Shown here piece after piece: positions 1-17,010 of a stretch of 64,000 nt of DNA; within the stretch, counting starts at the first letter, position 1; the number at the start of each line of letters is the position of its first letter. The stretch spans positions 1,088,921-1,152,920 of the forward strand of contig JAXGNN010000001.1 in the NCBI GenBank assembly GCA_040767925.1, read 5' to 3'. Source of the stretch: Christensenellales bacterium (lineage in GTDB: Bacteria; Bacillota; Clostridia; Christensenellales; CAG-138). Below the pieces are notes generated by a model. That model saw nothing but the letters and a program-made list of their open reading frames with translations, ran no database searches and had not been told where the DNA came from. The translations under genes were made by a program, and so were the position numbers.

Positions 1-194
1 CGTTCGACCCGGACGTTTTCATGTTCGCGCACACGGGCTGCAACGACGGCTTCATGAGCATGGCGTATTTCACCAACGACGGGCGCGGCTTCGCGCTGAT
101 GTTCAACTCCAACGAAGGACTCAACCTCTATTACGAAGTTCCCCGTGCGATCGCGCGGGAGTACGGCTACCCCATCCCGCCGGAAGCCATATAA
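1..194 (+). CDS. serine hydrolase / beta-lactamase-family protein, C-terminal end (5' part outside window)
   Basis: Frame 3 reads FDPDVFMFAHTGCNDGF...NSNEGLNLYYEVPRAIAREYGYPIPPEAI with stop TAA at 192-194. The HTG box resembles the KTG/HTG motif of class-C beta-lactamase-like esterases. Confidence 0.45.
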   Translation, partial: FDPDVFMFAHTGCNDGFMSMAYFTNDGRGFALMFNSNEGLNLYYEVPRAIAREYGYPIPPEAI

Positions 195-208
195 GGGAAA
201 GAGCGCAT

Positions 209-1807
209 ATGCTGGATATTCTCATTAAAAACGGCCTCGTCGCGGACGGCACGGGAAGGTCCGCATACCGGGCGGACGTCGCAATAAAGGATGGAAAAAT
301 CCTGCGCATCGCGCCTGTGATCAGCCTCGAAGCCGAAAAAACCATCGACGCGGCGGGCCTCGTCGTCGCGCCCGGGTTCATCGACTTCCACAGCCACGGG
401 GATATGTACGCCATATTCGGTTCCGACGGCTACAACCTCCTCGAGCAGGGCGTTACCACGGAGATCGCGGGGCATTGCGGGGATTCCGCCGCCCCTTCCC
501 GCCCCGGGCAGTACGACAAGCTGAAAAGCTTCCTCCCCCCGGAACTCGTGGACGCGGTGTCGGAAGCGACGCGGGATTTCGATGCGTTCGACGGCTTCAT
601 GACCAAGGCCCGGCTCGGCCCCAATATGGCGCTGTTCGTGGGCCATGGCAGCGTCCGCGGCCGCGTGATGGGCTTTAGCGGCGCGCGCCCTTCGCCGGAA
701 CAGATGGGAGAGATGAAGGATTGGGTCCAGCGAGCGATGGAATTCGGCTGCGTGGGGGTGTCCTCCGGCCTGATCTATCCGCCTTCCGTCTACGGGGGCC
801 AGCGGGAGCTCACGGAGCTGTGCAGCATCGTCGCGCAATACGGCGGGGTGTACGCCTCCCACATCCGGGGCGAGGGCGACACCGTCGTGGAGGCGGTGTC
901 GGAAGCCATCGCCATCGGCGAGGATAGCGGCTGCGACGTGATCATCTCCCACCATAAAATTTGCGGGAAGCACAACGAGGGCAAGTCTGAAACCACGCTC
1001 CGGCTGATCGAGGCGGCGAACGCAAGGGGAAAGATCGTCGTGCGCGCCGATCAGTATCCGTTCCTCGCGGGGCAGAGCGCGCTCGCGGCGGCGCTGCCGC
1101 CCGTTTTCGCGACGGAGGGCATCCCCGCGCTCGTAAAGCGCCTGAGCGACCCGGCCTTTCGCGCCGAGGTCACGGCGGAGCTGAAAAAACCATCCACCGG
1201 CAGCCTGATCAAAGAGAGCGGCTTCGACGGCGCGCTCGTATTGACCGCGCCCGCGGAGCCTGAACTCGTGGGCAAAACCATCGGAGAGATCGCGCGGGAG
1301 CGCGGGGCGGACGAATATGAGGTCATGTACGACATCATCGTGAAGAACAGCTTCGCGCCGTCCATGGCCTATTCCCACATCTGCGAATCCGACATGATGC
1401 GCATCCTCGCCAAACCCTACGTCATGGCAGGGGCGGATTCGGGCCACAACATCGAGCGTTTCGCGCGCGGCGCGCGCTGCGGCGCGCATCCGCGGGCCAT
1501 GAGCACGTTTCCCAAACACCTGCGCCTCGTGCGCGAGAACGGGCTCTTTCCCCTCGAAAAGGCCGTCGAGAGGATCACCGCCATGCCCGCGCGCGCCGCG
1601 CACCTCGCCGATACCGGAATGCTGCTCGAAGGATACCGCGCGGACGTCTGCGTTTTTGATTGGAACAACGTCGGAGAAACGAACGATTTCATCCACCCCT
1701 ATGCGAAAAACAAAGGCATCGGCTGGGTGATCGTCAACGGCGCAATCGCCGTGGAAAACGGGGATTATGACGGCGCGCGGCCAGGGAAGCTGCTCAAAAG
1801 GAGATAA
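209..1807 (+). CDS. N-acyl-D-amino-acid deacylase (D-aminoacylase), amidohydrolase superfamily
   Basis: 532 aa ORF. N-terminus MLDILIKNGLVADGTG..DVAIKDGKI and metal motif FIDFHSHGD are typical of D-aminoacylases. AAGGGAAAGAG lies upstream of the ATG. Confidence 0.75.
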   Translation: MLDILIKNGLVADGTGRSAYRADVAIKDGKILRIAPVISLEAEKTIDAAGLVVAPGFIDFHSHGDMYAIFGSDGYNLLEQGVTTEIAGHCGDSAAPSRPGQYDKLKSFLPPELVDAVSEATRDFDAFDGFMTKARLGPNMALFVGHGSVRGRVMGFSGARPSPEQMGEMKDWVQRAMEFGCVGVSSGLIYPPSVYGGQRELTELCSIVAQYGGVYASHIRGEGDTVVEAVSEAIAIGEDSGCDVIISHHKICGKHNEGKSETTLRLIEAANARGKIVVRADQYPFLAGQSALAAALPPVFATEGIPALVKRLSDPAFRAEVTAELKKPSTGSLIKESGFDGALVLTAPAEPELVGKTIGEIARERGADEYEVMYDIIVKNSFAPSMAYSHICESDMMRILAKPYVMAGADSGHNIERFARGARCGAHPRAMSTFPKHLRLVRENGLFPLEKAVERITAMPARAAHLADTGMLLEGYRADVCVFDWNNVGETNDFIHPYAKNKGIGWVIVNGAIAVENGDYDGARPGKLLKRR

Positions 1808-1810
1808 TCC

Positions 1811-4204
1811 ATGATCGACCACGGGAGGATATCCGCCATCGGGCCGACCGCGCGCGTTGAGCGCCTTCGCGCGGAACTGATCGCGTCCAAACCCATCCTT
1901 TGCAGCGAGAGGGCGCTGCTCGTCACGGAAAGCTACAGGCAGGCCGAGAGCGAGCCCGCGCCCATCCGGCGCGCGAAGGCGCTCGCCCACATCCTCGAAA
2001 ACATGACCCAGAACATATACGACGGGGAATTGATCGTGGGCAGCCACGGCAGCAACGGCAGGCGCTCCGCCCCCGTGTTCCCCGAGTATGCCATCGACTG
2101 GCTCATGGAGGAACTGGACGAAACGCTCGAAACGCGGCCGCAAGACACATTCGTCGTGCCCGCGCAGGTGAAGGCCGACCTGCACGCCGTCGCGCCGTAC
2201 TGGCGCGGCCGCACGGTGCACGAAAAATACCGCGCGCTGCTGCCCGGGGACGCCAGGCGCGCGCGGGACGCGTATCTGTTCACGCGCGACCTCTTCGAAC
2301 GCAGCGGTTACGGCCACACCTGCTATCAGATGGAAAAGCTGCTCAAGGCGGGCATCCGAGGGCTTCGCGAGGAAGTCAAAGGGAAGCTCGCCGGGCTTTG
2401 CCCGCTGACGGCGGAAGATATGGAAAGGCGGCTCTTTTACGAGGGGCTTTTGATCTGCTTCGACGCGGTGACGGCCTACGCGCGAAGATACGCGGACAAG
2501 GCCACTTCCTTGGCCGAAACGGAAGCCGACCCCAAACGCCGCGCGGAGCTCGGGAAAATCGCCTCCGTATGCCGCGGCGTGCCCGAGAATCCGGCGATGG
2601 ACATCTGGGAGGCCATGCAAGCCGTCGCCTTCATGCAGCTCATCATCCAGACCGAAACGAGCGGGGATTCCGTCTCGCCCGGCCGCATGGACCAATATCT
2701 CTATCCCTTCTATCAGAAGGATAGGGCGGACGGAACATATGCCGACGAACAGATACAGGAGCTTCTCGACTGCCTGTGGATCAAGTTTAACGAGATCATC
2801 AAGGTGCAGGACAGCGAGTCCATCCGCATCCACCCCGGCTTCCCGATGACGCCGAACGTCGCGGCGGGCGGGCAGACCGCAGACGGGAAAGACGCGGTCA
2901 ACGAGCTGAGCTTTATGATGCTCAACGCGCAATCGCACATCCGCCTCACCTGCCCGCAATTCACGGCGCGCTTTTTTGAAGGGACCCCCGAAGCATTCAA
3001 GCTGCGCGCGGCCGAGGTCATCAGCCTCGGCACGGGCATGCCGGCCCTGTTCGGCGACAAGGGCTGCATCGCGGCGATCGAACGGACGCTGCCGGAGCTC
3101 CCGGCGGAAAACGCAAGGGATTTTTCCATCGTCGGCTGTGTGGAGCTCGCGCCGAAGGGCTTTCAGGGCAGGGTCAACGGCGGACTTCTCAACGTGGCGC
3201 GCGTGGTTGATCTCGCGATCAACCGGGGAATCGACCGGCTGACGGGCGAAAGGCTCGGCGTTGATACCGGGATTCCCAACACATACGCGGAGCTGATGGG
3301 GGCCGTCGCGCGCCAGATGGAGCGCATCGTTTCGCTCCAGGTGCAAAACGCGCTCGCGGTGGATATGGCGCAGCGTGAGAATACGCCGCACCTGCTGCTC
3401 TCCAGCCTCATAGACGGCTGCATCGAATCGGGCAGGGATATGACGGCGGGCGGCTCGAGGTATGGCGCGACGCCCATCCTTTACGCGGGCCTCGCAACGG
3501 CGGCGGACTCCATCTGCGCGATCAAGAAATGCGTATTCGACGAGAAAGCCTTCTCGCTCAAGGAAGTGAACCGCGCGCTGGACGCAGATTTCGCCGGTTT
3601 CGCGGACATCCGGAAAAAACTCCTCGCCGCGCCCAAATACGGCGCGGGCGATCCCTACGCCGACGCCGTCATGCGCGAATTGACCGACCTGTTCTTCGGG
3701 ATCGTGGAGCGGCGCAGGGATATCGACAACAGGCCTTACACCTCCATGGTGCTCACGCTCGGCGGCACGGTGCCGCACGGCTGGAAAACCGGCGCGACCG
3801 CGGACGGGAGAAAGGCGAAGACGCCCGTTTCCGATTCCATGTCGCCCTCCAACCTCGCGCGCGGCACCAGCCCCACGGGCACGCTGCTCTCCGCCTCGCG
3901 GATCGATCAGACCCACATACTCGAAGGCAACGTGGTGAATCTGAAGTTCAGCCGCGGCGTGCTGTCCTCTCCCGAATCCCGGAAGAAGTTTGTGGATCTG
4001 GCGAATGTATACTTCGAGCGCCTCGGAGGCCAGGAACTGCAGGTCAACATGGCCGACGCGGCGATGCTGCGCGACGCGCAGGCGCATCCCGAAAACTATG
4101 CGGACCTGATCATTCGCGTGGCGGGCTACAGCGCGCGTTTCGTCGAGCTCGACCGGGAACTGCAGGACGACATCATCGCCCGCGCGGAGTACGCGGCCGT
4201 ATGA
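1811..4204 (+). CDS. glycyl radical enzyme, PFL2/dehydratase-lyase class, substrate unknown
   Basis: 797 aa. C-terminal glycine loop RVAGYSARF, Cys loop FSIVGCVELAP (GCVE type, not the PFL CC type). Strong RBS AAAGGAG. Confidence 0.9.
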   Translation: MIDHGRISAIGPTARVERLRAELIASKPILCSERALLVTESYRQAESEPAPIRRAKALAHILENMTQNIYDGELIVGSHGSNGRRSAPVFPEYAIDWLMEELDETLETRPQDTFVVPAQVKADLHAVAPYWRGRTVHEKYRALLPGDARRARDAYLFTRDLFERSGYGHTCYQMEKLLKAGIRGLREEVKGKLAGLCPLTAEDMERRLFYEGLLICFDAVTAYARRYADKATSLAETEADPKRRAELGKIASVCRGVPENPAMDIWEAMQAVAFMQLIIQTETSGDSVSPGRMDQYLYPFYQKDRADGTYADEQIQELLDCLWIKFNEIIKVQDSESIRIHPGFPMTPNVAAGGQTADGKDAVNELSFMMLNAQSHIRLTCPQFTARFFEGTPEAFKLRAAEVISLGTGMPALFGDKGCIAAIERTLPELPAENARDFSIVGCVELAPKGFQGRVNGGLLNVARVVDLAINRGIDRLTGERLGVDTGIPNTYAELMGAVARQMERIVSLQVQNALAVDMAQRENTPHLLLSSLIDGCIESGRDMTAGGSRYGATPILYAGLATAADSICAIKKCVFDEKAFSLKEVNRALDADFAGFADIRKKLLAAPKYGAGDPYADAVMRELTDLFFGIVERRRDIDNRPYTSMVLTLGGTVPHGWKTGATADGRKAKTPVSDSMSPSNLARGTSPTGTLLSASRIDQTHILEGNVVNLKFSRGVLSSPESRKKFVDLANVYFERLGGQELQVNMADAAMLRDAQAHPENYADLIIRVAGYSARFVELDRELQDDIIARAEYAAV

Positions 4205-4953
4205 TATTCGATATCCAGCGCTACTGCCTGCACGACGGGCCGGGCATCCGCACCGCGGTGTTCTTCAAGGGCTGCCCGCTCCAATGCGCGTGGTGCTCGA
4301 ATCCGGAATCCCAAAGCGCGCTCCCCGAGCTTCTGGGGGAGGCCCTGTGCGGAACGGACATGACGGCGCAGGAAATCGCGAAGGCCGCGCTCGCCGACAA
4401 GCCCTTTTACGACGGCTCGGGCGGCGGCGTGACCTTTACCGGCGGCGAGCCCATATCGCAGGCGGAATTGTGCGAAAAGAGCGCCCGCCTGTTGCTTGCC
4501 CAAGGCGTGGACCTCGCGCTGGAAACATGCGGATATGCTCCGTGGGAAGATCTCGAACGCGTGGCGCATCTCTGCCGCACGGTGTGTTTCGACATCAAGG
4601 CCGCGGACGGGGAATCGCACAGGCAGGCGACGGGCGCGGACAACCGCGTCATCCTCGAAAACTTCGCGCGGCTCGCCGCCGCGCATGCGGGCGTCGTCGT
4701 GCGCACGCCGCTCATACCGGACTTCAACATGGACGAAGGCTCCATTGAAGCCATATGGAGTTTGTCCTCATCCGCGGGGATCAAGGAGATGGAGTTGCTC
4801 CCGTATCACGCGCTGGGCGTTCATAAATATGAGCTTCTCGGAAGGCCCGCGCCTCAAATACGGCCTGTCAGGGAAAAGGAGCTGGATGCGATCTCCCGGA
4901 TCGCGCAACGGCTCTCCGAGAAAGGCACTGTGAAAATCACGATCATTCGATAG
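4201..4953 (+). CDS. glycyl-radical enzyme activating enzyme (radical SAM)
   Basis: MIFDIQRYCLHDGPGIRTAVFFKGCPLQCAWCSNPES contains the CX3CX2C radical-SAM motif. Its ATG overlaps the GRE stop (ATGA). The track ORF 3529-4953 is an upstream extension inside the GRE gene. 250 aa, with no ferredoxin-like CX2CX2CX3C insert visible. Confidence 0.9.
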   Translation: MIFDIQRYCLHDGPGIRTAVFFKGCPLQCAWCSNPESQSALPELLGEALCGTDMTAQEIAKAALADKPFYDGSGGGVTFTGGEPISQAELCEKSARLLLAQGVDLALETCGYAPWEDLERVAHLCRTVCFDIKAADGESHRQATGADNRVILENFARLAAAHAGVVVRTPLIPDFNMDEGSIEAIWSLSSSAGIKEMELLPYHALGVHKYELLGRPAPQIRPVREKELDAISRIAQRLSEKGTVKITIIR

Positions 4954-4963
4954 GAGAACGGCT

Positions 4964-6070
4964 ATGGATGAACTCAAAAAATACGCTGGGATATTGGCCG
5001 GGTACTCGTGCGACGTAAAGCCCGGCGAAAACGTCATGGTGCTCGCGGAGGGCGGCGAGGCGAAGCCGCTGGTGATCGAGCTTGTGAAGGAGATCTACCG
5101 CAGGGGCGCGAACCCCTTCGCGGAGCTCGTGGATGCGGACATCCAGAGGGAACTGCTGCTCGGGTGCAACGCGGGGCAGATGGGCGTTTTCGGGGATTAC
5201 AGCCTAGAAAAGCTCAAGAGGATGCATGCGCTCATCGTCATATCGGCGCTGGATAATCCCTATCAATACGCGGACGTTCCGCTCGGGAACATGCAGCATT
5301 ACAACTACAATTTCATGCAGCGCTGCTTCTTCGGATACGGGGTTTCCAACACCAAGTGGACTTACGTTAAGTACCCCACGCGGGCCATGGCGCAGCTGTT
5401 CGGCCAGAGCTTAGAAGAGTTCTCAAAATACTACTACGCGGTGTGTACAATGGATTACGCGCGCATGTCCAGGCTGATGGACAGGCTTGCCGCGCTGTTC
5501 GAGAGGACGGATCGCGTCCGGATCGTCGGGAAAGGAACGGACATCAGCTTCTCCATCAAGGGCATTCCGGCGCAAAAATCGGACGGCAGAAACGGCCTTC
5601 CCGACGGCGAGGTGTTCACCGCGCCCGTAAGGGATTCCGCGAACGGAACTGTAAGCTTCAACTGCCCGGTGTATTTCCGGGGCACGCTGTTTGAAAACAT
5701 CCGCCTTCGCTTTGAGAACGGGCGCGTCGTGGAGGCGTCTGCCAACAAAACCGAAAAGCTCAACCGGATACTCGAACTGGACGAGGCCGCCAAATACCTT
5801 GGGGAGTTCGCCATTGCCGTCAACAATCGCATTACGAAACCCATGAAGGACATCCTGTTCGACGAGAAGATCGGCGGGAGCTTCCACTTCGCGCTGGGCA
5901 ACTCCTACCCCATGACGGACAACGGCAACCATTCCGCCATCCATATGGATATCGTCAACATACAGACGCCAGAATACGGCGGCGGCGAGATCTATTTCGA
6001 CGGCGCGCTGATCCGCAAGGACGGCAAGTTCCTGCCCGCCGAACTCAAGGAACTCGACGAGCTGGTCTAG
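4964..6070 (+). CDS. aminopeptidase, M29 (AmpS/PepS) family
   Basis: 368 aa. The N-terminus MDELKKYAGILAGYSCDVKPGENVMV and overall pattern are typical of thermophilic-metalloprotease M29 aminopeptidases. Confidence 0.7.
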   Translation: MDELKKYAGILAGYSCDVKPGENVMVLAEGGEAKPLVIELVKEIYRRGANPFAELVDADIQRELLLGCNAGQMGVFGDYSLEKLKRMHALIVISALDNPYQYADVPLGNMQHYNYNFMQRCFFGYGVSNTKWTYVKYPTRAMAQLFGQSLEEFSKYYYAVCTMDYARMSRLMDRLAALFERTDRVRIVGKGTDISFSIKGIPAQKSDGRNGLPDGEVFTAPVRDSANGTVSFNCPVYFRGTLFENIRLRFENGRVVEASANKTEKLNRILELDEAAKYLGEFAIAVNNRITKPMKDILFDEKIGGSFHFALGNSYPMTDNGNHSAIHMDIVNIQTPEYGGGEIYFDGALIRKDGKFLPAELKELDELV

Positions 6071-6089
6071 GCGCGGGCAATCGCGGTAT

Positions 6090-7241
6090 ATGGAGCTGAA
6101 ATACTACAATTCCTATCTGGAGGTCGATCTCGACGTCATCCGAGAAAACCTCCGGAAAGCCCAAAGGCACCTCGGCCCGGCGGGCATCATACCCGTGTGC
6201 AAGGGGGATGCGTTGGGTATGGGCGCCGTGCCCGTCGCGCGCGTGCTGCGCGATGAATTCGGCTTCCGGCTCATCGCGGTGGCGCAGATGTGCGAGGCAA
6301 TCCGCCTGAGGGAAGCGGGATTCACCGACGTCGGCATCCTGGTCATGGGCGGTGTTCCCGCCCATGCCCTGCCCTATGCCGTATCCTGCGACATACAGAC
6401 GGCGGCCTTCCGGCCCGAAGCCGTGCGCGCGCTCGACGAATTGGCAATTGCGGCCGGAAAAACGGCCCGCGTGCACGTCAAGCTTGAAACCGGGCTCAAC
6501 AGGATCGGCGCGCGTCCCGGGAAGGAGTTGGATCGGCTCCTTGCGGCGCTCCGGGCGGCGAAGCGCGTGCATGTCGCGGGCGTATTCACGCAGTATTCCG
6601 CATGCGCGGCGAACGGCGATCCGTTCACATATGAGCAATACGGCCGCTTCAAACAGGGCGTGGACCAGCTCCGCGCCGGCGGATTTGACCCGCAATACGT
6701 TCACTCGTGCAGCACGGGCGCAGCGGTATGGTTCCGCGAGGGACAGGCCGATGCCGCGTACTGCACCCACGTGCGCTTCGGCTCCCTCTACTTCGGGCAG
6801 GGACAATTGGCGGACGGCAACAATCCTCTCGGCGTGGACGAACCGGAATCGTGGAGAGCTTTCGTCACAAACGTGCATGATATCCGCGCAGGCGAATCGG
6901 TCGGCTACGGGCGGCATTTCATCGCCCCGGAGGACATGCGCGTCGCGACCATCAGCATAGGCTATGCGGATGGCCTGATCAGAGCGCTCGCCATGGAACA
7001 GGGCGCCGTGCTGGTCAACAACGCAAAAACAAGGTACCTTGCGACGTGCATGGACCAAACGTTCGTCGACGTCACCGGCATCGGCTGCGCCATCGGGGAC
7101 GAGGCCACGATATTCGGCCGGGATCGGACGGGAACGGCGCGTCTCTCCCTGCTCGAGCTGGAAAAGCATACGGGCCAAGCGGTAGGGTATATTATGAGCA
7201 GCGTGGGCAGCCGCGTGCTGCGCGTATATAAAAATCAATAG
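6090..7241 (+). CDS. alr: alanine racemase family PLP enzyme (amino-acid racemase)
   Basis: 383 aa. PLP-lysine region IIPVCKGDALGMGA, C-terminal ISIGYADG and DQTFVDVT motifs typical of Alr. Confidence 0.75.
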   Translation: MELKYYNSYLEVDLDVIRENLRKAQRHLGPAGIIPVCKGDALGMGAVPVARVLRDEFGFRLIAVAQMCEAIRLREAGFTDVGILVMGGVPAHALPYAVSCDIQTAAFRPEAVRALDELAIAAGKTARVHVKLETGLNRIGARPGKELDRLLAALRAAKRVHVAGVFTQYSACAANGDPFTYEQYGRFKQGVDQLRAGGFDPQYVHSCSTGAAVWFREGQADAAYCTHVRFGSLYFGQGQLADGNNPLGVDEPESWRAFVTNVHDIRAGESVGYGRHFIAPEDMRVATISIGYADGLIRALAMEQGAVLVNNAKTRYLATCMDQTFVDVTGIGCAIGDEATIFGRDRTGTARLSLLELEKHTGQAVGYIMSSVGSRVLRVYKNQ

Positions 7242-7258
7242 CGCATACAGCAAAAGCC

Positions 7259-7280
7259 CGCCGTCGATATGAACGGCGGA
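7259..7280. terminator. hairpin between convergent alr and tetR genes
   Basis: CCGCCGT (7259-7265) pairs with ACGGCGG (7274-7280), 8-nt loop, followed by CTTTCTT. Confidence 0.4.
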
Positions 7281-7295
7281 CTTTCTTGCACCGCT

Positions 7296-7937
7296 TTACT
7301 CCGTAAGAAGCCGATACACCGCCCTCGTCGCGAGGGTCAGCATCTTTTGCAGATGATCCAGTTTTTCCGCGTTCACAAAGGGGATCGTCCTGAGGAAATA
7401 ACTCAGATACGTACCCCGGAGCGCGCCGGAAATCAGCTCGTACATTTCTTCAGCGGGGCGGTCAACCGTGACGGTTCCGTCCGCCCTGCCTTTTTCGTAA
7501 GCGGCGAGAAAATACGGGCGGATGATGGAGTCGATGCTTTCGTAGAGCCGCTCGACTTTGCCGCCCAAGGGTTCGTGTCGGAGCAGATAGATGTTGTAAT
7601 CCACGAACAGGGCGTAGAACGTCGGATCGTCCTTGGTGGCGTGCGCGTAGGAGTCGAGTATGGCCCTGAGCTGCTCCGCGCCGGAAAGCCGGCCGTAGCT
7701 TTCGGTGAAGATATTCGCCCTGTAATCCTCGGATACGGCTTCCACGAGATCGTGGAAGAGCCTGCTCGCGATATCGCACTTGGATTCGAAATGCTTGTAT
7801 ATGGATACCTTGCTCACGCCGGACGCGGCGGCGATTTCATTCATGGTCGTCGCCTCGATGCCCTTTTCAAAGAACAATCTGGCTGAAGCCTCAAGCACCC
7901 GGTTTAGGTTCTGCCGTTTGATCTCTTCGTTCTTCAT
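7296..7937 (-). CDS. TetR/AcrR family transcriptional regulator
   Basis: 213 aa. N-terminal HTH FFEKGIEATTMNEIAAASGVSKVSIYKHFESK. Confidence 0.85.
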   Translation of the reverse strand: MKNEEIKRQNLNRVLEASARLFFEKGIEATTMNEIAAASGVSKVSIYKHFESKCDIASRLFHDLVEAVSEDYRANIFTESYGRLSGAEQLRAILDSYAHATKDDPTFYALFVDYNIYLLRHEPLGGKVERLYESIDSIIRPYFLAAYEKGRADGTVTVDRPAEEMYELISGALRGTYLSYFLRTIPFVNAEKLDHLQKMLTLATRAVYRLLTE

Positions 7938-8164
7938 CTATCTGCGCCAAGCCTTTCATTTCGCTTTACCGGCGGTTAATGCATTCGATAATTATCATAC
8001 AATCTCCGGGAGTAAGTGTCAACGAATTGAACGACGGCCATAGGCCGCTTACGCTGAAACGCTTTGCGCGGCATCCTTATACCACGGGCGGAGGGTATGG
8101 GATGTGGCTGCCCGTGGAATGCAGCAGATCGAAATCTATCACGCTTTGCCTAAGAATGCATTGA

Positions 8165-8467
8165 CTCACCAACGAGGAAGCTATCACGCAGATAGTGGAG
8201 GATAATACCAATCAGCGTGAAAATATCCTGCCGAGCGAACGGGCCAAAGCTTTGCAAATGCAGTTGGAAGCTATCAAAAAGCAAGGGGCGCGAACCGGCG
8301 ACGCTCAACGCTACAATGAGATTGTAGCCGAGCGCAATAAAATGACCGTCAGGCAGGTGCAACGGTATATCAAGCTCAACGGTTTTATGCCCACCCTTAT
8401 CAAGATGGTGGACGAAAAGAAAATCTCGTTCACTCCCGCCGCGGAAATGTCGTATATTACGCCCTAG
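8165..8467 (+). pseudogene. ParB/Spo0J-like partition protein fragment (central HTH part only)
   Basis: Reads ..EEAITQIVEDNTNQRENILPSERAKAL...MTVRQVQRYIKLNGFMPTLIKMVDEKKISFTPAAEMSYI. An in-frame TGA lies at 8162 and there is no ATG. It lacks the N-terminal ParB box and the C-terminal domain. Confidence 0.5.
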
Positions 8468-8554
8468 GGGTTCTTTAAGAGACCGAACCGGAAACAGCGT
8501 TCGGTTCCGGTTCGATATTGCGCAGGGAAAAGCTGTTTTCCGTCTGGCTCAGCC

Positions 8555-9961
8555 TCAGCGCGATTGCAGGTAATCGGCGACGATCAATCCGCATTCCAGT
8601 TGGACGCCGACAAGGTTTCGGATCGGGACGACCTGATAGTTCATGTTCTCCTCGAGGAAGGAGGTGATTTTCCGAAAACCCTCCATCGATTTTTCAACGC
8701 CCTTCTCGAGCGCTTCGCGCTTCTTCGGGTCATTTTCTTCCTGTTCGTCCATGAGGGCAAGCTCGCTTTCGTTCGCCCGAAGCAGCATAGCGTAGACGAT
8801 GGCCTTATAGAACTTGGAAACGAGCAGATTATCGAATTTCTCCGCCACGGTGGCGGTTTTTTCGTACCTGGGATCGGCGTCGAGGCGTTTTTGCTCGGCG
8901 CCCGTATCCTCCTGCGTGTGGCGCGTGAAGGCTTCCACCGCCAGCAGGAAATGGTTATCCCGCGAAAGGTATTCGTGCGATACCTCGAGGATCGAGAGGA
9001 TTTCCGCGTTCATGCGGATGTCGTCCTCCATGCGCTGGAGCGCCGCCTGCTTGCGCGTGATGTCGGACGGCCTGCAGTCGTCGATGCGGGGGTCGTAGAA
9101 ATAAGGCAGCTCCGTGAGCAGGGTGAACGAGTTGTAGCGTTCCCGGGCATAGCTCGCGCTGCAGTCCCCGCTCGAGAAGTTCTTGACGATCTCCTTCATG
9201 TCGCCGCCGCAGTATTTCTCCTTGAAGTCGTATTCCGCGCTGACGCCCAGATTCGCATAGATCGCCGTGGCGTACTCCTCGCACGCGGGGCTTTCCGGCT
9301 CGCCCCTGTGGAGCGGCACGCCGTATTTCTCCGGCACGCCGTGCAGCTCGTTGAAAATCTCGGGCAGCGGCCAGGAGATATACCAGTATGCGCCGCCGAA
9401 GCCCGCGTTGTGCAGCGAATAGATGAAGTGCGGCTTTATTTCGTCGATCAGCTTCATCATGGCGGTCGTTTCGGGGATGCTGTCGTGGAAATGCAGCTGC
9501 TTATAATCTATCGGGAAAGTCCAGTCCACCTGTTCGAAACCGGCGGGCCTGAAGAAATTGCGCATATAGTTTGTGATGGTGAAAGGGCCCTTGAACCATT
9601 TTTCGTTCTTCTTGGTCCCGTCGGCGTCCCACGCCTTTACGATGTACCAAGTGTAATCCAGCTCCCGGCGGAGCTCCTCGTTTTTTGCGAGCTGCCACGA
9701 GAAATGCTCGAGCAGCATGGTGCCGATGGGTTCGTTCGGATGCGGCAGGCCGAACATGAGCGCGTTTTTGCTGCCGCTGCCTATTTTTAAACAGTAGAGC
9801 GGGTGGTTTTCCCGCGTTTTTCCGATTTCAAACAGGGATACGACGCCGGGGAACTGCCGGGCGAGCTGCTTGGAGCTTTCGTCCATCTCATCCACGGTGA
9901 GGAATTTCTGATAATCGGGAATCTGCTCGAGAAGCTGCTCAAATACTTTTTTCATACACAA
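8555..9961 (-). CDS. M14-like zinc carboxypeptidase family protein
   Basis: 468 aa. HxxE zinc motif GLPHPNEPIG and a later SLHNAGFGG His region. Sits next to the peptide ABC importer. Confidence 0.5.
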   Translation of the reverse strand: MCMKKVFEQLLEQIPDYQKFLTVDEMDESSKQLARQFPGVVSLFEIGKTRENHPLYCLKIGSGSKNALMFGLPHPNEPIGTMLLEHFSWQLAKNEELRRELDYTWYIVKAWDADGTKKNEKWFKGPFTITNYMRNFFRPAGFEQVDWTFPIDYKQLHFHDSIPETTAMMKLIDEIKPHFIYSLHNAGFGGAYWYISWPLPEIFNELHGVPEKYGVPLHRGEPESPACEEYATAIYANLGVSAEYDFKEKYCGGDMKEIVKNFSSGDCSASYARERYNSFTLLTELPYFYDPRIDDCRPSDITRKQAALQRMEDDIRMNAEILSILEVSHEYLSRDNHFLLAVEAFTRHTQEDTGAEQKRLDADPRYEKTATVAEKFDNLLVSKFYKAIVYAMLLRANESELALMDEQEENDPKKREALEKGVEKSMEGFRKITSFLEENMNYQVVPIRNLVGVQLECGLIVADYLQSR

Positions 9962-9991
9962 CCGTCCTAATCATTTGATCGGCGTGAGACC

Positions 9992-10021
9992 CGGGCAGGC
10001 GGGTCATGCCGCCTGCCCGGA
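9992..10021 (-). terminator. 12-bp GC hairpin downstream of the substrate-binding protein gene
   Basis: CCGGGCAGGCGG (9992-10003) pairs with CCGCCTGCCCGG (10010-10021). No clear U-tail on the minus strand. Confidence 0.3.
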
Positions 10022-10043
10022 TTCCAGCTAAGTTGAAAGGGGA

Positions 10044-11675
10044 TTATTCGAAGTAAGCGAAGGTGAACTCGCCCCAGCTGCCTACGCCCGCGTTCTGGCA
10101 AGGCGCGCCCACGAGGTTGGACGGGAAGCAGACGTATTCGGCGTACGAAATGATGGGGATGATCGCCATCTCGTCATGCATGATCTGCTGGACGCGGAAG
10201 TAGCGCTCCTGCCGGTACGCCTCGTCGCCGTTGGCGTTGGCCTCTGCGAGCAGCTGGTCGATTTCCGCGTTCGAATACTCGCCGAGGTTCGACATGCCGC
10301 CGGTGCCGATGCGGCTCGCGAGCGCCGAGGGGTCGGGGCCCTGGAAGCCGCCCATGAGCGCCATGCTGAAAGTGCCGGGCGCGCCGGAAAGCTCGTTGAC
10401 GGTCTGATCCCACGCGAGGTATTCCTGCGCGTTGACGGTGAGCTCAATGCCGGCCTCCTTGCAGGCGGCGGCGATCAGCCTTCCGACGTCGGGCGCGTTG
10501 TCAAGGTTGTATACCTCAAGCTGCAGCCCGCGCACATAGTAACCGTCCGCATCCTTGGTGTAGCCCGCTGCCTCAAGGGCGGCGACGGCGGCCTGGATGT
10601 CGTACTCGGGCGCGGCCGCCGCGGAGTTGGAGGCCCACTCGATGATGGAGGGATAGAAGTTATACTCGGGCGAACGCACGCCCGCGAAGACCTTGTTGTT
10701 GATGTCCGCGCGGTTGATGCAGTACGCGAGCGCCTGGCGCACGGCGAGCGGGGTTTCGTAGCCTGCGCGGAAATTGAACAGGATGTACATCGGCGAGGGG
10801 TAGACGTTCAGAACAGCCGCGTAGCCTTCCGACTGGAGGCTGGCGACGTCGGTGTTGGGAGCCGCGTCGAGATAGTCGATCTCGCCGGTGCGCAGCGCCT
10901 GCACAGCGGTGGTGGTGTCCGGGATGATCTTGAAGATCAGCTTGTCGATCCTGACTTCGGTTTCCCAGTAATTCTCGTTCTTCGCAAGGTCGATGCTCAC
11001 CGACGGGGTATAGCTGACGAACTTGAACGGGCCGGTGCCGACGGGCGACTCGCTGGCGGGGTTCTCGCCCCAGGGCTGCCCGTTGTCGAACAAGTGCTTG
11101 GGCAGCACGAACGTGCCGTACCAGCCGAGGTAGCCGAGAATGCCCATGTCGGGGCTCTTCATGACGAAGACGGCGGTATTCTCATCGGGGCATTCGACGT
11201 GGTCGAGGTTCCTCAGGAGGTAGTTCGCGATCAGCGCGGAATCCGCGGCGATCGTCTCGAAAGTATACTTCACGTCCGCGGAGGTGAACTTCTCGCCGTC
11301 ATGCCAGAAGGCGTTTTCAGCGAGGTGGAAGGTGATCCTTAGACCGTCGTCGCTCGTCTCCCAGCTCCTTGCGAGGTCGGGGATGAGCTGCTTGTTGGCG
11401 TCGAGCTTCAAAAGGCGGTTGTAGACGTTCTGCGCCACCGCGTAGTTGAAATCGTCGCCCGTGGTGTTGGGGTTGAGCGTCAGGGGATCGCCGTAGCTGC
11501 GGACCACGAGGGTCTGCTCCTCGGCGGGAGCGGGGGGTGCGGTTTCTCCGGCGCCGTCGGTTTTGTTCGGGCTGCCGGCGTTCGTGGGGGTGCCCGTTTC
11601 GGACGCGGGACCTCCGCACGCGGCCAGGGACGCAAGCACGAGCATGGCCATTAACAGTGCGAGCGCTTTTTTCAT
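10044..11675 (-). CDS. ABC transporter substrate-binding lipoprotein, family 5 (peptide/nickel, Opp/Dpp type)
   Basis: 543 aa. Lipobox LASLAACGG. Family-5 SBP length and pattern. Confidence 0.85.
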   Translation of the reverse strand: MKKALALLMAMLVLASLAACGGPASETGTPTNAGSPNKTDGAGETAPPAPAEEQTLVVRSYGDPLTLNPNTTGDDFNYAVAQNVYNRLLKLDANKQLIPDLARSWETSDDGLRITFHLAENAFWHDGEKFTSADVKYTFETIAADSALIANYLLRNLDHVECPDENTAVFVMKSPDMGILGYLGWYGTFVLPKHLFDNGQPWGENPASESPVGTGPFKFVSYTPSVSIDLAKNENYWETEVRIDKLIFKIIPDTTTAVQALRTGEIDYLDAAPNTDVASLQSEGYAAVLNVYPSPMYILFNFRAGYETPLAVRQALAYCINRADINNKVFAGVRSPEYNFYPSIIEWASNSAAAAPEYDIQAAVAALEAAGYTKDADGYYVRGLQLEVYNLDNAPDVGRLIAAACKEAGIELTVNAQEYLAWDQTVNELSGAPGTFSMALMGGFQGPDPSALASRIGTGGMSNLGEYSNAEIDQLLAEANANGDEAYRQERYFRVQQIMHDEMAIIPIISYAEYVCFPSNLVGAPCQNAGVGSWGEFTFAYFE

Positions 11676-11726
11676 GGCTTTTCCTCCTAAATGTCATTTA
11701 TTTGATGCGCGCGAAACGCGCGGCAA

Positions 11727-12713
11727 TCAAACCTTAAAGCAGGCGACGCGATGACCGCCCTCATGCGTCGTGGTCGGCGGGTATTCCTTCAGGCATTCCG
11801 CTCCCGCGACGGGGCAGCGGTCGGCGAAGAAGCAGCCGGGGCCGGGGTCGATCGGGGTGGGCGGTTCGCCGTCTATGCGGATCGGCTCGGTTTTATCGAA
11901 AATATCGATTGAAGCGCAGTTCGAAATCAGTGCCTGCGTGTACGGGTGCAGCGGGCTGTCGATGATCGCGTCCGCGGCGCCGTATTCGACGACGCGGCCG
12001 AGGTACATCACCGCGATGTTGTCGGCGACATGGCGCGTCAGGGCGATGTCGTGACTGATGAAAACGACCGTCACCTTCTTCTCGACGCTCTGTTCGAGCA
12101 GCATATTGATGATATCCGCGCGCACGGAAACGTCGAGCATGGAAACGGGCTCGTCCGCCACGATGACGGCGGGGTCCAGCGACATGGCGCGCAGGATCGC
12201 GATGCGCTGAAGCTGTCCTCCGGAAAGCTCGTGCGGATACCGCTTGAGGATATCGTCGGCGGGCCGGAGGTTGCCGGATTCGAGCAGCTCCACGCAGCGC
12301 CTGCGGCGCGCGGCCTTATCCGGACAGATGCCGTGGTTTTTCAGCGGGCGGCTCAGGAGCTGCTCGATGGTATCCCGCGGGGTGAACGCATCGTATGGGT
12401 TCTGGAAAACGATCTGCACGGTACGGTAGAATTTCTTCGCGTCCTCCTCGATCATCTTCCCGGTCGATACGCCGCCGATGAACACATCCCCCGCGCTCGG
12501 CGCCTCAAGCCTCGTGAGCAGCCTTGCGAGCGTCGATTTCCCGCAGCCGGATTCGCCGATGACGCCGAGCACCTCGCCCTGCGCCATGCCGATGCTCACG
12601 CCGTTGACCGCCTTGACGAGCTTGCGGCTCCGCCTGCCGCCAAACAGCGTGCCAGACCCCTTGACGGGGTAAAATTTCGAAATATCCTGAATTTCAATAT
12701 AGCTGCCGCTCAT
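11727..12713 (-). CDS. peptide ABC transporter ATP-binding protein (OppF/DppF-like)
   Basis: True start is MSGSYIEIQDISKFY at 12713 (ATGA overlap with the upstream gene). Walker A GESGCGKST, signature LSGGQLQR, C-terminal oligopeptide-type extension. The track ORF extends spuriously to 13022. Confidence 0.85.
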   Translation of the reverse strand: MSGSYIEIQDISKFYPVKGSGTLFGGRRSRKLVKAVNGVSIGMAQGEVLGVIGESGCGKSTLARLLTRLEAPSAGDVFIGGVSTGKMIEEDAKKFYRTVQIVFQNPYDAFTPRDTIEQLLSRPLKNHGICPDKAARRRRCVELLESGNLRPADDILKRYPHELSGGQLQRIAILRAMSLDPAVIVADEPVSMLDVSVRADIINMLLEQSVEKKVTVVFISHDIALTRHVADNIAVMYLGRVVEYGAADAIIDSPLHPYTQALISNCASIDIFDKTEPIRIDGEPPTPIDPGPGCFFADRCPVAGAECLKEYPPTTTHEGGHRVACFKV

Positions 12714-13681
12714 TGCTTTTCCACCTCGATCAGATGGCAAGACACAAAGTGGTCGTTGCCCAGGTTGGTCCGCGCGGGCGCGGCCGTTTTGCATTTCTCC
12801 ATCGCCTCGGGGCAGCGGCCGGCGAATATGCAGCCTTCGTGGCGAACGGACATATCCGGCAAAAACCCGGGGATGCTCTCGAGCACGATCCTTCTGCTGC
12901 GAAGCGGCGGGAACGCGGCGAGCAGGCCTTTCGTATACGGATGGGCGGGGCGCGCGAGCACGTCCGAAACGTGCCCGGACTCGAGGAGCGCGCCCGCGTA
13001 CATGACGGCGACCTTGTTGCATGAGCTTGACACCACCGAGATATCGTGCGTGATGATGATGCGGCTCGTCTTAAGCTCGCTCTCCATCTTCCGGAGCTCG
13101 AGGAGAATCTGCCCTTGCGTCACCACGTCGAGCGCGGTGGTCGCCTCGTCCATGATGAGGAGCTCCGGCTCGTGCAGCAGGCTCACGGCGATCATCACGC
13201 GCTGGAGCATGCCGCCCGAGAGCTCGTGCGGGTAGAGCCGGTAGACGCGTTCGTTGAGGTTGACGAGCGAGAGCATTTTCGCGGCCTGCTCGTGCGCCTG
13301 CTTCCTTGTGGCGTCGGGCTCGTGGATGCGGTAGATATCCTCGATCTGGTCGCCGATGCGGTGGACGGGGCTGAAGGAGTTCATCGCCTTTTGGAAGACG
13401 ACCGAAAGGTTCTTCCAGCGCAGCTTGTTGAGCTGTTCGTCCGGCATATTCAGCAAGTCCTGCCCGAGGAAAACGGCCTCGCCCTCCACGGCGGTCTTTT
13501 TCGCGGGCAGCAGCCTTAGGAGAGCCATCGCCATCGTGGATTTGCCGGAGCCGCTCTCCCCCACGATCCCCATCGAATCGCCCTGATCGATCGAGAAGGA
13601 AGCGCCGTTCACCGCGTAAACGCTCCTATTCTTGTTTTTATAGGTAACGGACAGGTTCCTTACGTCGAGTACGCGCGCCAT
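12710..13681 (-). CDS. peptide ABC transporter ATP-binding protein (OppD/DppD-like)
   Basis: 323 aa. Walker A GESGSGKST, signature LSGGMLQR. Confidence 0.85.
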   Translation of the reverse strand: MARVLDVRNLSVTYKNKNRSVYAVNGASFSIDQGDSMGIVGESGSGKSTMAMALLRLLPAKKTAVEGEAVFLGQDLLNMPDEQLNKLRWKNLSVVFQKAMNSFSPVHRIGDQIEDIYRIHEPDATRKQAHEQAAKMLSLVNLNERVYRLYPHELSGGMLQRVMIAVSLLHEPELLIMDEATTALDVVTQGQILLELRKMESELKTSRIIITHDISVVSSSCNKVAVMYAGALLESGHVSDVLARPAHPYTKGLLAAFPPLRSRRIVLESIPGFLPDMSVRHEGCIFAGRCPEAMEKCKTAAPARTNLGNDHFVSCHLIEVEKQ

Positions 13682-14539
13682 TTACCTTTCCCCCCTTTGC
13701 AGCTTCTGCGGGTTCAGGATGTGGTTGAGACCGTCCCCGAGAAGGTTGAAAACAAGCACCGTGAACACCACTGCGAGCCCCGCCAGAACCGATACCCAGG
13801 GCGCGTAGGTGATGTAGTTGCGCCCGTCGTTGATCATCTGCCCCCAGCTGATCACGTTGGGGTCGCCGAGGCCCATGAACGAGAGCGCGGCCTCGGTGAG
13901 CACCGCGTACGCCATGCTCATGGTCGTGTTGGAGATGACGGGGTACATGCCGTTGGGGATGATGTATTTAAATAGGATCTGGCCCCGCGTTTCGCCCATG
14001 GCGTGCGCGCCCATGACGAACACGCGCTCCTTGAGCGAAAGCGTCTGCGCGCGCATGAGCTTAGCGTTGCGCGGCCATGTGGTGAGGCCGATGATCACCA
14101 TCACGTTCGTGAGGCTGTTTCCGAAAAGCGCCACCACGAGCATAATGAGGAACAGATCGGGAATCATCATGAAGATATTGATGATTTCCGAGATGACCAT
14201 ATCCACCTTGCCGCCGAAAAATCCCGCGATTCCGCCGACGAGAAGCCCGATGCTGCCCGAGATGAACGCCGCCACGATGGCCACCCATAGGGACGTGCGC
14301 GTGCCGTATACCAGCATGGACCAGATATCCTGCCCCATGTGGTTCGTGCCCAGCCAGTGCCCCGGCGAACCCGGCTCCGCGAGGCTGTCCGGCCCGTAAA
14401 AATCGGCCGGATATTTCGTGATGAGCGGCGCGGACACGACGAGCAGCAGCAGGATCGCGACGCCGATGAGGCCGGCGAAAAACTGCCTGTCCTGCGTTAT
14501 GGCCGAAAGAGTTTTCAACAGCTTTTTCATTCTATCCAT
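13682..14539 (-). CDS. peptide ABC transporter permease (OppC/DppC-like)
   Basis: Membrane protein starting MDRMKKLLKTLSAI. The start may be 14539 or 14530. The track ORF extends to 14710, inside the upstream permease gene. Confidence 0.8.
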   Translation of the reverse strand: MDRMKKLLKTLSAITQDRQFFAGLIGVAILLLLVVSAPLITKYPADFYGPDSLAEPGSPGHWLGTNHMGQDIWSMLVYGTRTSLWVAIVAAFISGSIGLLVGGIAGFFGGKVDMVISEIINIFMMIPDLFLIMLVVALFGNSLTNVMVIIGLTTWPRNAKLMRAQTLSLKERVFVMGAHAMGETRGQILFKYIIPNGMYPVISNTTMSMAYAVLTEAALSFMGLGDPNVISWGQMINDGRNYITYAPWVSVLAGLAVVFTVLVFNLLGDGLNHILNPQKLQRGER

Positions 14540-14553
14540 CCAACCTTCGCGCA

Positions 14554-15516
14554 TTAGTAGCGGATCCTGGGATCGAGCACCGCGTAGATGACATCGATGA
14601 TGATCATGGTGACGCACACCGTGATCGACATGATGAGATAGATGCCCATCAGCACGGGGTAGTCGCGCTGGCTGATGGCGGTAAGCATGACGCGCCCCGT
14701 GCCCGGCCACGCGAACACGACTTCAATGAGCGCGACGCCGGCGATCAGGTACGCGAGGGTGATGCCGAATATGGTCACCACGGGCAATATGGCGTTTTTC
14801 AATACGTATTTGCGAAAAATACGCTTTTCGCTCATCCCCGCGGCGCGGTATGTCATGATGTAATCCTCGTTATTGACCTGGATAACGGAGGATTTGGCGA
14901 TGCGGAAGTAATAGGGGATATCGATGAGGACCAGGGTAAGCATGGGCAGGAACATATGCTTCGCCACGTCGAGCACGCGCTTGATGCCCGTATAGTTGGC
15001 GCGCACATCCTCCATGCCCGAGGAGGGGAACCAGCCGAGCTTGACCGCGAGGACGATGATCAGCATGAGCGCGAGCCAGAAGCCGGGCATGGCGTTGAGG
15101 AAATACGCCCCGCCCGAGTACAGCGCGTCCACGACGGAGCCCTCCTTGCGCGCGGCCACGATGCCCGCGGCCGTGCCGAGGACGAGGCCGATCACCGAGG
15201 CGACGCCCACCAGCAGCAGCGTAGGTCCGAGCTTTTCGCCGATGATATCTACAACAGGCCTTCCGAAAATGATGGAGTCTCCCAGATCGCCCCGGAGAAG
15301 CTGCCCGAAATAACGGAAATACTGAACGTGCAGCGGTTTATCGAGGCCGTATTTCGCCGCGAGCACCGCTTTCAACTCGGGGTTTGCGACGTTCCTGCCA
15401 AGAAGAATCGTGGTCGGATCGCCGGGGGCGATGTGCATGAGCACGAAGTTCAGGGTCATCACCAATACGATGGTGATGATGCTGATGAGCAGTTTTTTGA
15501 CGATGTATTTTTTCAT
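14554..15516 (-). CDS. peptide ABC transporter permease (OppB/DppB-like)
   Basis: True start MKKYIVKKLLISIITIVLV at 15516. The BPD-transporter pattern ends in DPRIRY. Confidence 0.85.
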   Translation of the reverse strand: MKKYIVKKLLISIITIVLVMTLNFVLMHIAPGDPTTILLGRNVANPELKAVLAAKYGLDKPLHVQYFRYFGQLLRGDLGDSIIFGRPVVDIIGEKLGPTLLLVGVASVIGLVLGTAAGIVAARKEGSVVDALYSGGAYFLNAMPGFWLALMLIIVLAVKLGWFPSSGMEDVRANYTGIKRVLDVAKHMFLPMLTLVLIDIPYYFRIAKSSVIQVNNEDYIMTYRAAGMSEKRIFRKYVLKNAILPVVTIFGITLAYLIAGVALIEVVFAWPGTGRVMLTAISQRDYPVLMGIYLIMSITVCVTMIIIDVIYAVLDPRIRY

Positions 15517-15735
15517 TGGCTTTTCCGCTCCCGGTTTTCTATTGATTCGTGGATGGCCTTGGATTTTGTATGCCGCGCGGCCTTCCGCGAAAGCGGCATG
15601 CGGCATATGGTAAAACGATCGCCTGCGGTTTGCTTTGCTGGCCAAACGCGCGGGCGCGGGAATCCGTGCCGGATGCTCCGGCCTGATCGCGAGGATAAGG
15701 CTGTTCCTGGAATTGCGCGGCTGACCGTTTTTGTC

Positions 15736-15759
15736 ATAATGTAGCATATGCTACATTAT
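15736..15759. promoter_or_regulatory. perfect 24-bp palindrome, candidate operator
   Basis: ATAATGTAGCAT/ATGCTACATTAT, plus a third half-site AAAATGTAGCG at 15765-15775. It lies about 25-50 nt downstream of the minus-strand promoter. Confidence 0.4.
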
Positions 15760-15789
15760 CGTGTAAAATGTAGCGTTTACTCATAAAGC

Positions 15790-15818
15790 ATTATAAGACC
15801 ATACTTATACGTTGTCAA
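15790..15818 (-). promoter_or_regulatory. consensus sigma-70-type promoter for the peptide ABC operon
   Basis: The minus strand reads TTGACA (15818-15813), a 17-nt spacer, then TATAAT (15795-15790). Confidence 0.5.
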
Positions 15819-15926
15819 CTTACAGATTCTGCGCATGCATACGATCACTGTCCCGGACGGACGCGCTTTTTTTATATAGAGAAGATTTTTCAGATTCGGC
15901 TTATGCGCGCGGCGCGCTGTTTTTCA

Positions 15927-15955
15927 TTGACATCGGCGCGTCTGCGCCGTACAAT
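15927..15955 (+). promoter_or_regulatory. promoter candidate for the RpiR-family gene
   Basis: TTGACA 15927-15932, 17-nt spacer, TACAAT 15950-15955. Confidence 0.4.
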
Positions 15956-16026
15956 CCCCATTGACGATTATGTATACTTGGGCGCATCGGGGCGCGGCGT
16001 AATTCATTTAGCAAAGGATTTAGATT

Positions 16027-16857: not shown

Positions 16858-17010
16858 GCTTGAATGACAGGCAACCAGGATTTTCACATCTTTGGGAAGC
16901 AGCGGGCAGGGGTTCATTCCATAATCAGTTCTTGAAACTGCTATCTCCTTCGTTCATTTGTATCACCCGCGTGTTCTTTAGACACCTTATCAACATCGGT
17001 TGATACAATG

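Follow-up and report, generated by a model that had tools for sequence, protein, structure and literature searches.

A glycyl radical enzyme outside the characterised families in a putative hydrolase and racemase operon of a Christensenellales bacterium, and its possible role in forming 2-amino-4-ketopentanoate

We analysed a 64,000-nt stretch of the genome of a Christensenellales bacterium (assembly GCA_040767925.1, contig JAXGNN010000001.1, positions 1,088,921 to 1,152,920), hereafter the window, which encodes a glycyl radical enzyme (GRE) among genes for hydrolases and a racemase. Coordinates are positions in the window, on the + strand unless marked otherwise. A gene for a D-aminoacylase-family amidohydrolase (209..1807, 532 aa; Amidohydro_3, best PDB match 1m7j) is followed by the GRE (1811..4204, 797 aa; PFL-like, PF02901, 647 bits, and Gly_radical, PF01228, 83.6 bits), its activase (4201..4953, 250 aa; Radical_SAM and Fer4_12, with CX3CX2C at residues 25-32), an M29 (AmpS/PepS-type) aminopeptidase (4964..6070, 368 aa; Peptidase_M29, 170.7 bits) and an alanine-racemase-fold racemase dependent on pyridoxal phosphate (PLP) (6090..7241, 383 aa; Ala_racemase_N and Ala_racemase_C). 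The intergenic gaps across this five-gene set (209-7241) are 3, -4, 10 and 19 nt, and the GRE stop and activase start overlap in the four nucleotides ATGA. An earlier sequence-only reading had proposed these gene identities, a tightly packed co-directional arrangement with gaps or overlaps of 3-19 nt, and a convergent TetR gene downstream. Domain searches, open reading frames and spacing all agree with it, and the TetR-family regulator lies at 7296..7937 on the - strand (TetR_N, 57.7 bits), with its own promoter-like site at 8022-7994 (promoter scan 11/12).

The operon begins upstream of the window. The first 194 nt of the window (1..194, +) are the 3' end of a gene for an S12/beta-lactamase-fold serine hydrolase (Pfam Beta-lactamase, 124.8 bits). 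The full gene (L007, 13028-14194) starts 972 nt before the window, with an ATG and an AAAGGAG ribosome-binding site, and its translation contains SVSK and HTG motifs. An M20 peptidase gene (Peptidase_M20, 132 bits) lies upstream of the S12 gene, outside the window, and a TTGACA-17-TAAACT promoter-like site precedes both. At the other end, a GC-rich, terminator-like hairpin (7258..7279; 7 pairs, 6 of them GC, a consensus match only) between the convergent racemase and TetR genes is the likely end of the operon. The full unit would thus comprise seven genes, encoding M20, S12, D-aminoacylase, GRE, activase, M29 and racemase. Co-transcription is likely because of the short gaps and the single promoter-like and single terminator-like sites.

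The GRE carries the motifs IRVAGYSARF (Gly772) and IVGCVELA (Cys443-Val-Glu445), and its other key residues are His169, Asp286, Arg454 and Asn456. A PFL-like barrel, a C-terminal Gly_radical domain with RVxG and a cognate radical-SAM activase assign it to the GRE superfamily, and the Cys-x-Glu on the Cys loop, invariant in its clade, to the 1,2-eliminase/isomerase class. Judged from these features, it is an intact, functional and oxygen-sensitive enzyme of the 1,2-eliminase/isomerase type. The AF2 model (pLDDT 87, pTM 0.89) has a TM of ~0.95 to all eliminase-type GREs.

A PDB search revealed the best matches with glycerol dehydratase (GD; 520 bits), propanediol dehydratase (PD), CutC and HpzG; HplG scored just 352 bits. 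Identity to solved GREs reached a maximum of 37% with GD, followed by PD (35-36%), HpzG (35%), CutC (32-33%), HypD (31%), IslA and HpsG (30%) and HplG (29%). All NCBIfam equivalog models failed, at about half of their cut-offs: HypD (NF043068) scored 507.4/1100 bits, CutC (TIGR04394) 497.9/1050 and PflD 476/1109, and the sulfonate enzymes HpfG and HpsG scored 525 and 485 against cut-offs of 1000, at 30% identity. On these comparisons the GRE is outside every characterised family, in agreement with the sequence-only reading; the combination that it had named as contrary evidence, tight clustering with a known family plus that family's binding residues, was not found. Our literature searches found no paper on the clade of the GRE described below, and a 2026 review of GREs contains no such enzyme. 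In 2026 preprints on metal-dependent bile salt hydrolases, GREs and D-aminoacylases appear only in reference lists or methods, with no link.

A search of a large protein collection revealed about 75 clusters at 54-65% identity to the GRE and none closer. In a tree of 58 sequences, the window GRE was nested in a 27-row clade (support 100), and within it in a 9-row subclade with P0008, P0013, P0031 and P0040. This clade is marked by the signature ET[SN]GDSVS, which contains Asp286 ('GDS'), and by invariant GYGH, R454-x-N456 and HPGFPMT; the strings GYGH, ET[SN]GDSVS, HPGFPMTPN, VGCVELAP and FQGRVNGG are common to the window GRE and the clade. Monophyly, the signature residues and a ferredoxin-less activase all place the window GRE in this group, referred to below as the Asp286 clade.

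The neighbourhoods of the relatives were compared in 13 non-redundant Asp286-clade loci with usable flanks, other than that of the window (L001, L003/L014/L156, L010, L011, L012, L015/L142, L016, L120, L121, L122, L141, L147 and L150). Cultured species account for two of them (Alkaliphilus metalliredigens and Emergencia timonensis), and the remainder are from metagenome-assembled genomes (MAGs) or metagenome contigs. OrtA and OrtB are encoded in 10 of the 13 loci, with OrtB 61-75% identical to the copy of the window genome; L015/L142 and L120 end before the expected OrtAB position, and in L147 no OrtAB lies within reach. OrtAB, a PLP/CoA-dependent thiolase, cleaves 2-amino-4-ketopentanoate (AKP) in the final step of oxidative ornithine fermentation. 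A PLP amino-acid enzyme was found beside the GRE in every one of the 13 loci: a class-III-fold ('class III aminotransferase') protein in 12, and a class I/II aminotransferase instead in L147. The best PDB match of the class-III-fold copy in L003 was isoleucine 2-epimerase (412 bits), with 4-aminobutyrate (GABA) aminotransferases at 264-275 bits; its matches to a broad-specificity racemase and to an alanine/serine racemase likewise lay well above the latter. The remaining copies share 52-59% identity with that of L001. The majority of the loci also contain a sigma-54 activator as well as an amino-acid transporter of either the AGCS (Na+/alanine symporter) or the APC family, and L122 additionally carries an Alr-fold racemase. 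Among known GREs, HplG is the only one that feeds OrtAB, and it makes AKP (PMC13450708).

Two further observations were made in these relatives. In L016 (4791-19848), an Ord-OrtA-OrtB-sigma54 block occurs twice around the GRE with identical tblastn scores, reflecting either a duplication or a MAG assembly artefact. The Emergencia timonensis genome (G041, reached via L014) has 16 PFL-like GRE matches, several of them in tandem on one contig, and none of the 16 reaches the HypD cut-off.

Residues around the active site were mapped on GD and HypD. Relative to GD, His164 (His169 in the window GRE) and Ser282 are kept, and GD His281, Tyr339, Trp445 and Asp447 are replaced by Asp286, Thr347, Arg454 and Asn456. 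The HypD reference was a bona fide HypD from a Sedimentibacter genome (1413 bits vs NF043068); no HypD was found among the relatives of the window GRE. Relative to HypD, His160 (His169) and Asp278 (Asp286) are kept, and Ser334, Asp339, Phe340, Tyr450 and Thr645 are replaced by His341, Met346, Thr347, Leu459 and Leu650. In HypD, Asp278 is in contact with both the amine and the hydroxyl of the substrate; the enzyme requires this residue, and D278N is inactive (PMC7077986). The Asp that characterises CutC at the GD-His164 position is not present in the window GRE, which has His169 there. In the active-site comparison suggested by the sequence-only reading, the amine-binding Asp of HypD is the one member of the HypD substrate set that is kept. 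From alignment and gene context, we infer that Arg454, which is invariant both in the Asp286 clade and in the sister clade described below, binds the carboxylate and that residue 286 reads the C2 substituent.

The activase scored 250 bits with TIGR02494 (cut-off 174), which it passes, skipping profile positions ~48-98, and 141 bits with the PflA model TIGR02493, which it fails. The CX2CX2CX3C motif is absent in all six Asp286-clade activases checked, including that of the window, and these are 250-269 aa long; the activases of the sister clade described below retain two such motifs. The vast majority of GRE activases have a ferredoxin-like domain, with PFL-AE and RNR-AE as notable exceptions (2026 review). 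Because the window activase is eliminase-type by profile, yet skips the insert, the ferredoxin insert was lost secondarily. The deletion is common to the clade activases, which shows that GRE and activase travelled together. The window activase resembles PflA in consisting of a radical-SAM domain only (250 aa), without auxiliary clusters, but by sequence it groups with eliminase-type activases.

A sister clade, at 54-60% identity, carries Asn at position 286. Five of its loci have flanks (L009, 5912-8338; L013, 5066-7495; L135, 8001-10421; L145; L146), and the operons encode GntR, TRAP (DctPQM), the GRE, an activase with the ferredoxin insert, a D-2-hydroxyacid dehydrogenase and an HMGL-like protein. 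Neither OrtAB nor a PLP enzyme was found in these five loci. The sister clade probably acts on a hydroxy- or oxo-acid analogue. L009 also encodes a second GRE (3506-5869), in tandem and upstream of the Asn286 GRE, with GCVT for GCVE and GVGN for G-x-G-H, so that the eliminase Glu and His are both lost.

Two Asp286-type loci have contexts that bridge both clades. L147 (Ga0172377_10002068, 5674-17042) encodes a GRE that is 65% identical to that of the window, in the order IclR, HMGL-like, class I/II aminotransferase, GRE, activase, TRAP, 2-hydroxyacid dehydrogenase and GntR, which suggests that the amino group could be a transient handle on a keto acid. In L001 (A. metalliredigens CP000724, 3424-9936), genes for GntP, an IlvD/EDD dehydratase, an FAH-family protein, a class I/II aminotransferase and an HpcH/HpaI aldolase lead directly into GRE, activase, OrtAB and racemase, and this locus may represent a sugar-acid-to-AKP route. 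These contexts fit amino and oxo/hydroxy versions of one skeleton. The simplest reading would be that the Asp286 and Asn286 clades act on 2-amino and 2-hydroxy/oxo versions, respectively, of one carboxylate skeleton.

The window genome (2.7 Mb, 93% complete, 60% GC) encodes one GRE and one activase. Its single OrtAB lies in a complete ord-ortA-ortB-oraS-oraE-oraF-orr cluster on contig 2 (L008, C2:528000-547000). This ornithine cluster, whose oraF is MutL-like, is followed by an ornithine carbamoyltransferase gene, and the genome's best alanine racemase is encoded ~3 kb beyond (C2:548433-549107). An Ile-2-epimerase-type racemase, a bacterial microcompartment (BMC) shell gene (PF00936) and a proline-racemase-family gene were not found in the 93% complete genome. 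The lack of a shell gene in this search accords with the earlier statement that the neighbourhood is atypical for GCVE-type GREs.

A GRE of the window type was absent from all 15 congeneric genomes searched. No orthologous operon without the GRE was found in these congeners, in which the D-aminoacylase reached at most 47% and the racemase at most 34% identity, and D-aminoacylase and M29 paralogues are scattered through the genome and the genus. Two metagenome contigs that are ~93% identical in DNA (L137/L138) keep the order of activase 3' end, M29, racemase and TetR, with synteny ending near window position 8148, and a racemase relative at 94% identity exists. Because the order is kept in these contigs, the arrangement is taken to be real and common to sister strains. 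A search of 160 loci of GRE relatives for neighbours homologous to the amidohydrolase, M29, racemase, M20 and S12 proteins found none, with the exception of an unrelated Alr (33%) in L122. By these comparisons, the peptidase/D-aminoacylase context is specific to the window lineage.

The sequence-only reading had used this context as a guide to the substrate, and that use of it did not hold up, the context being found only here and in the ~93%-identical contigs. Because the peptidase neighbourhood is not conserved, the window context alone cannot define the GRE substrate. The substrate class drawn from it fared better, in that an alpha-amino acid is backed by Asp286 and by the PLP and OrtAB partners of the relatives. 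The informative context would then be the OrtAB/racemase/transporter operon of the relatives rather than the peptidase neighbourhood of the window.

Outside the operon, an MFS transporter gene is divergent from the operon start, upstream of the window. Defence-type genes also flank the operon upstream (L007, 3631-7491; contig 1, 6.5-10.4 kb upstream of the window), encoding a GmrSD-C/DUF5655 protein, a 760-aa AAA_21/SMC-like ATPase and then an HTH protein, which fit a variable genomic region. A recently acquired island was considered on the basis of composition and rejected, the GC content of the region being 62-64% vs 60% for the genome.

The amidohydrolase (209-1807) matched D-aminoacylase 1m7j with 255 bits (E 7e-75), and the N-acyl-D-glutamate deacylase 3gip was also matched. 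In the alignment with 1m7j, its His61/His63, Cys90, His218, His248/249 and Asp409 occupy the positions of the metal ligands and catalytic residues. The fold, the Cys/His/His metal site and the catalytic Asp indicate that it is a member of the N-acyl-D-amino-acid deacylase family. The racemase (6090-7241) scored 203.8 bits with the alanine-racemase equivalog TIGR00492, passing the cut-off of 168. Five Alr-fold genes were counted in the genome; this one ranks second among them, with 29% identity to the first. Racemase relatives at 44-52% identity are common in Clostridia, and one at 51% (L139) lies in a GRE-free array of Opp transporter, regulator, S12 hydrolase and racemase genes.

Our preferred reading, to which we give a probability of about one half, is that the GRE forms AKP from a 4-hydroxy C5 alpha-amino acid and that the genome's only OrtAB then cleaves it. 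The GRE and activase genes would have reached the window lineage together, as a cassette of two genes whose source was an uncharacterised clade of Clostridia that ferment amino acids. As the substrate we propose a C5 alpha-amino acid that bears a hydroxyl at C4 and a leaving group at C5 and that is probably of the D-form. Two features make the D-form plausible: racemases accompany the GRE in the clade, and here the D-aminoacylase gene lies 3 nt upstream of it. The activase would generate the Gly772 radical, and the Cys443 thiyl radical would abstract the hydrogen from C4, with the substrate hydroxyl handled by Glu445 and His169, the alpha-ammonium held by Asp286 and the carboxylate by Arg454. 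Loss of the C5 substituent and return of the hydrogen to C5 would yield AKP, by ketyl-radical beta-elimination or isomerisation as in CutC, HpsG and HplG. OrtAB, encoded in the ornithine cluster on the other contig, would cleave AKP to acetyl-CoA and D-alanine. In the HplG and ornithine pathways, too, the alanine formed by OrtAB is D-configured. The Alr-fold racemase of the operon may convert the D-alanine to L-alanine; alternatively, it may epimerise the substrate or AKP. In this scheme, the product, substrate, stereochemistry and residue roles of the GRE are all predictions from the comparisons above.

The first candidate substrate is 4,5-dihydroxynorvaline, which would be converted in a diol-dehydratase-like reaction. 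It ranks first because A. metalliredigens and L147 carry sugar-acid and aminotransferase genes and because the GRE is close to the diol dehydratases. 4,5-Dihydroxynorvaline is the transamination product of 2-keto-3-deoxypentonate. The second candidate is 4-hydroxyornithine or another 5-N-substituted (5-amino, 5-guanidino) analogue. The M20, S12, D-aminoacylase and M29 enzymes may release the D-form of the substrate from N-acyl or peptide conjugates, a supply that would make up for the lack of a class-III racemase and a transporter here; no other step of the scheme is as weak.

A wider proposal, which we hold slightly more tentatively, falling just short of even odds, is that the Asp286 clade represents a new activity, namely a dehydratase or lyase that forms AKP from a 4-hydroxy C5 amino acid with a primary amine. 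It would provide a B12-independent, redox-neutral entry to the OrtAB branch, would be separated from the sister activity by an Asp/Asn switch, would work with a minimal, ferredoxin-less activase, and would here have been recruited to a D-amino acid from conjugates. The oxidative ornithine pathway (Orr, OraSE, Ord and OrtAB; Clostridium/Acetoanaerobium sticklandii), which is complete in the window genome, would supply the proposed downstream steps. However, that pathway reaches AKP via a B12/PLP aminomutase and a dehydrogenase, whereas the GRE would start from another substrate. As far as can be judged from sequence, the enzyme is of a known mechanistic kind, and what is new is probably its substrate/product logic, together with the minimal activase and the lineage-specific operon.

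Several points weigh against the preferred reading. Gene neighbourhood is the only evidence for AKP formation, across the whole clade, and the residue roles are drawn from sequence alignment, not from a docked model. The operon linkage that characterises the clade, OrtAB plus a class-III-fold racemase, is missing from the window genome, where OrtAB lies on another contig than the GRE and no class-III racemase was found. In the 58-sequence tree, the terminal branch of the window GRE is long (0.42), and its amino-acid composition is atypical. Known diol dehydratases abstract a terminal-carbon hydrogen and form aldehydes, not methyl ketones, so the 4,5-diol proposal needs an HpsG/HplG-like mode; moreover, the candidate substrates are rare in nature. 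Finally, the racemase passes the alr threshold and its 44-52% relatives pair with S12 and Opp transporter genes without a GRE, and the hydrolase genes may therefore serve D-Ala peptides rather than the GRE substrate.

This last point leads to the alternative that survives best, which we regard as unlikely overall but as the most serious competitor. The GRE-activase cassette would be functionally separate from the hydrolase and racemase genes, and the host operon, into which the cassette had inserted, would be a salvage unit for D-alanine peptides or N-acyl-D-amino acids, with an S12 D-peptidase and an alanine racemase beside M20, D-aminoacylase and M29. AKP would still be the product of the GRE, formed from a free amino acid that is taken up elsewhere, and the two modules would at most have D-alanine in common, as a product that goes to the racemase. 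The TIGR00492 score of the racemase, its 51% relative in the GRE-free Opp/S12 array and the scattered D-aminoacylase and M29 paralogues all favour such a separation, as do the GRE relatives without these hydrolase neighbours and the 15 congeneric genomes without the GRE. However, the cassette lies in the middle of the unit, separated by 3 nt from the D-aminoacylase gene and by 10 nt from the M29 gene, and the order of activase, M29, racemase and TetR is kept in the 93%-identical contigs from other samples. Furthermore, the GRE has neither an amino-acid transporter nor a class-III racemase beside it here, which means that its substrate must be delivered, correctly configured, by other means.

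Clearly less probable is that the GRE acts on a hydroxyproline isomer (e.g., cis- or trans-4-hydroxy-D-proline), either as a HypD-like dehydratase or as an HplG-like C-N lyase, fed by peptidases of collagen-type peptides. Hydroxyproline is by far the commonest 4-hydroxy amino acid. HypD (trans-4-hydroxy-L-proline dehydratase, 6VXC) likewise acts on an amino acid, and its Asp278 and His160 correspond to Asp286 and His169. However, at 31% identity and 507 vs 1100 bits with NF043068, the window GRE has lost five HypD residues, namely the carboxylate triad Ser334/Tyr450/Thr645 as well as Asp339 and Phe340, and proC is not adjacent. HplG (trans-4-hydroxy-D-proline C-N lyase, 7VUA) is also a CxE-type GRE that delivers AKP to OrtAB, the link seen in the relatives of the window GRE, and it uses a D-amino acid, as is plausible for the window enzyme. 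But HplG belongs to another clade (29% identity, 352 bits), and the substrate of the window GRE is probably a primary amine. The racemases that accompany the GRE are PLP enzymes, which act on primary amines. These racemases and the AGCS/APC transporters are the partners of the window clade, together with a ferredoxin-less activase; a proline-racemase-family epimerase was found neither in the genome nor in the annotated operons of the relatives.

A diol dehydratase of the glycerol/1,2-propanediol type, or another eliminase (choline, isethionate or DHPS), in a coincidental neighbourhood is very improbable: GD (1R8W, 37%) and PD (5I2A and 9RCO, 35-36%) are the best sequence and fold matches (TM 0.95) and share the CxE loop and His164 (His169), but GD His281, Tyr339, Trp445 and Asp447 are replaced by Asp, Thr, Arg and Asn, every equivalog model fails by about half its cut-off, no BMC shell gene was found in the genome, the window operon lacks microcompartment and aldehyde-handling genes (aldehyde or alcohol dehydrogenase), and the operons of the relatives are amino-acid operons.

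Much of the difficult anaerobic chemistry of gut and sediment microbes depends on GREs, most clades of which have no assigned function. For the clade described here, AKP can now be predicted as the product, and Asp286 and Arg454 as the residues that bind the amine and the carboxylate, respectively; the Asn286 sister clade in hydroxy-acid operons offers a natural control, and Emergencia timonensis and Alkaliphilus metalliredigens are cultivable carriers. It is more than one further orphan GRE, because the comparative data give a specific, cheaply testable hypothesis. If this hypothesis is true, the clade would provide a second, independent GRE route to AKP besides HplG, and would reveal an amino acid not previously known to be fermented, which may come from pentose acids. 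The enzyme would also be an eliminase-type GRE working with an activase without auxiliary clusters. Judging by the gene arrangement in the window, such a pathway may draw on D-amino-acid or N-acyl conjugates.

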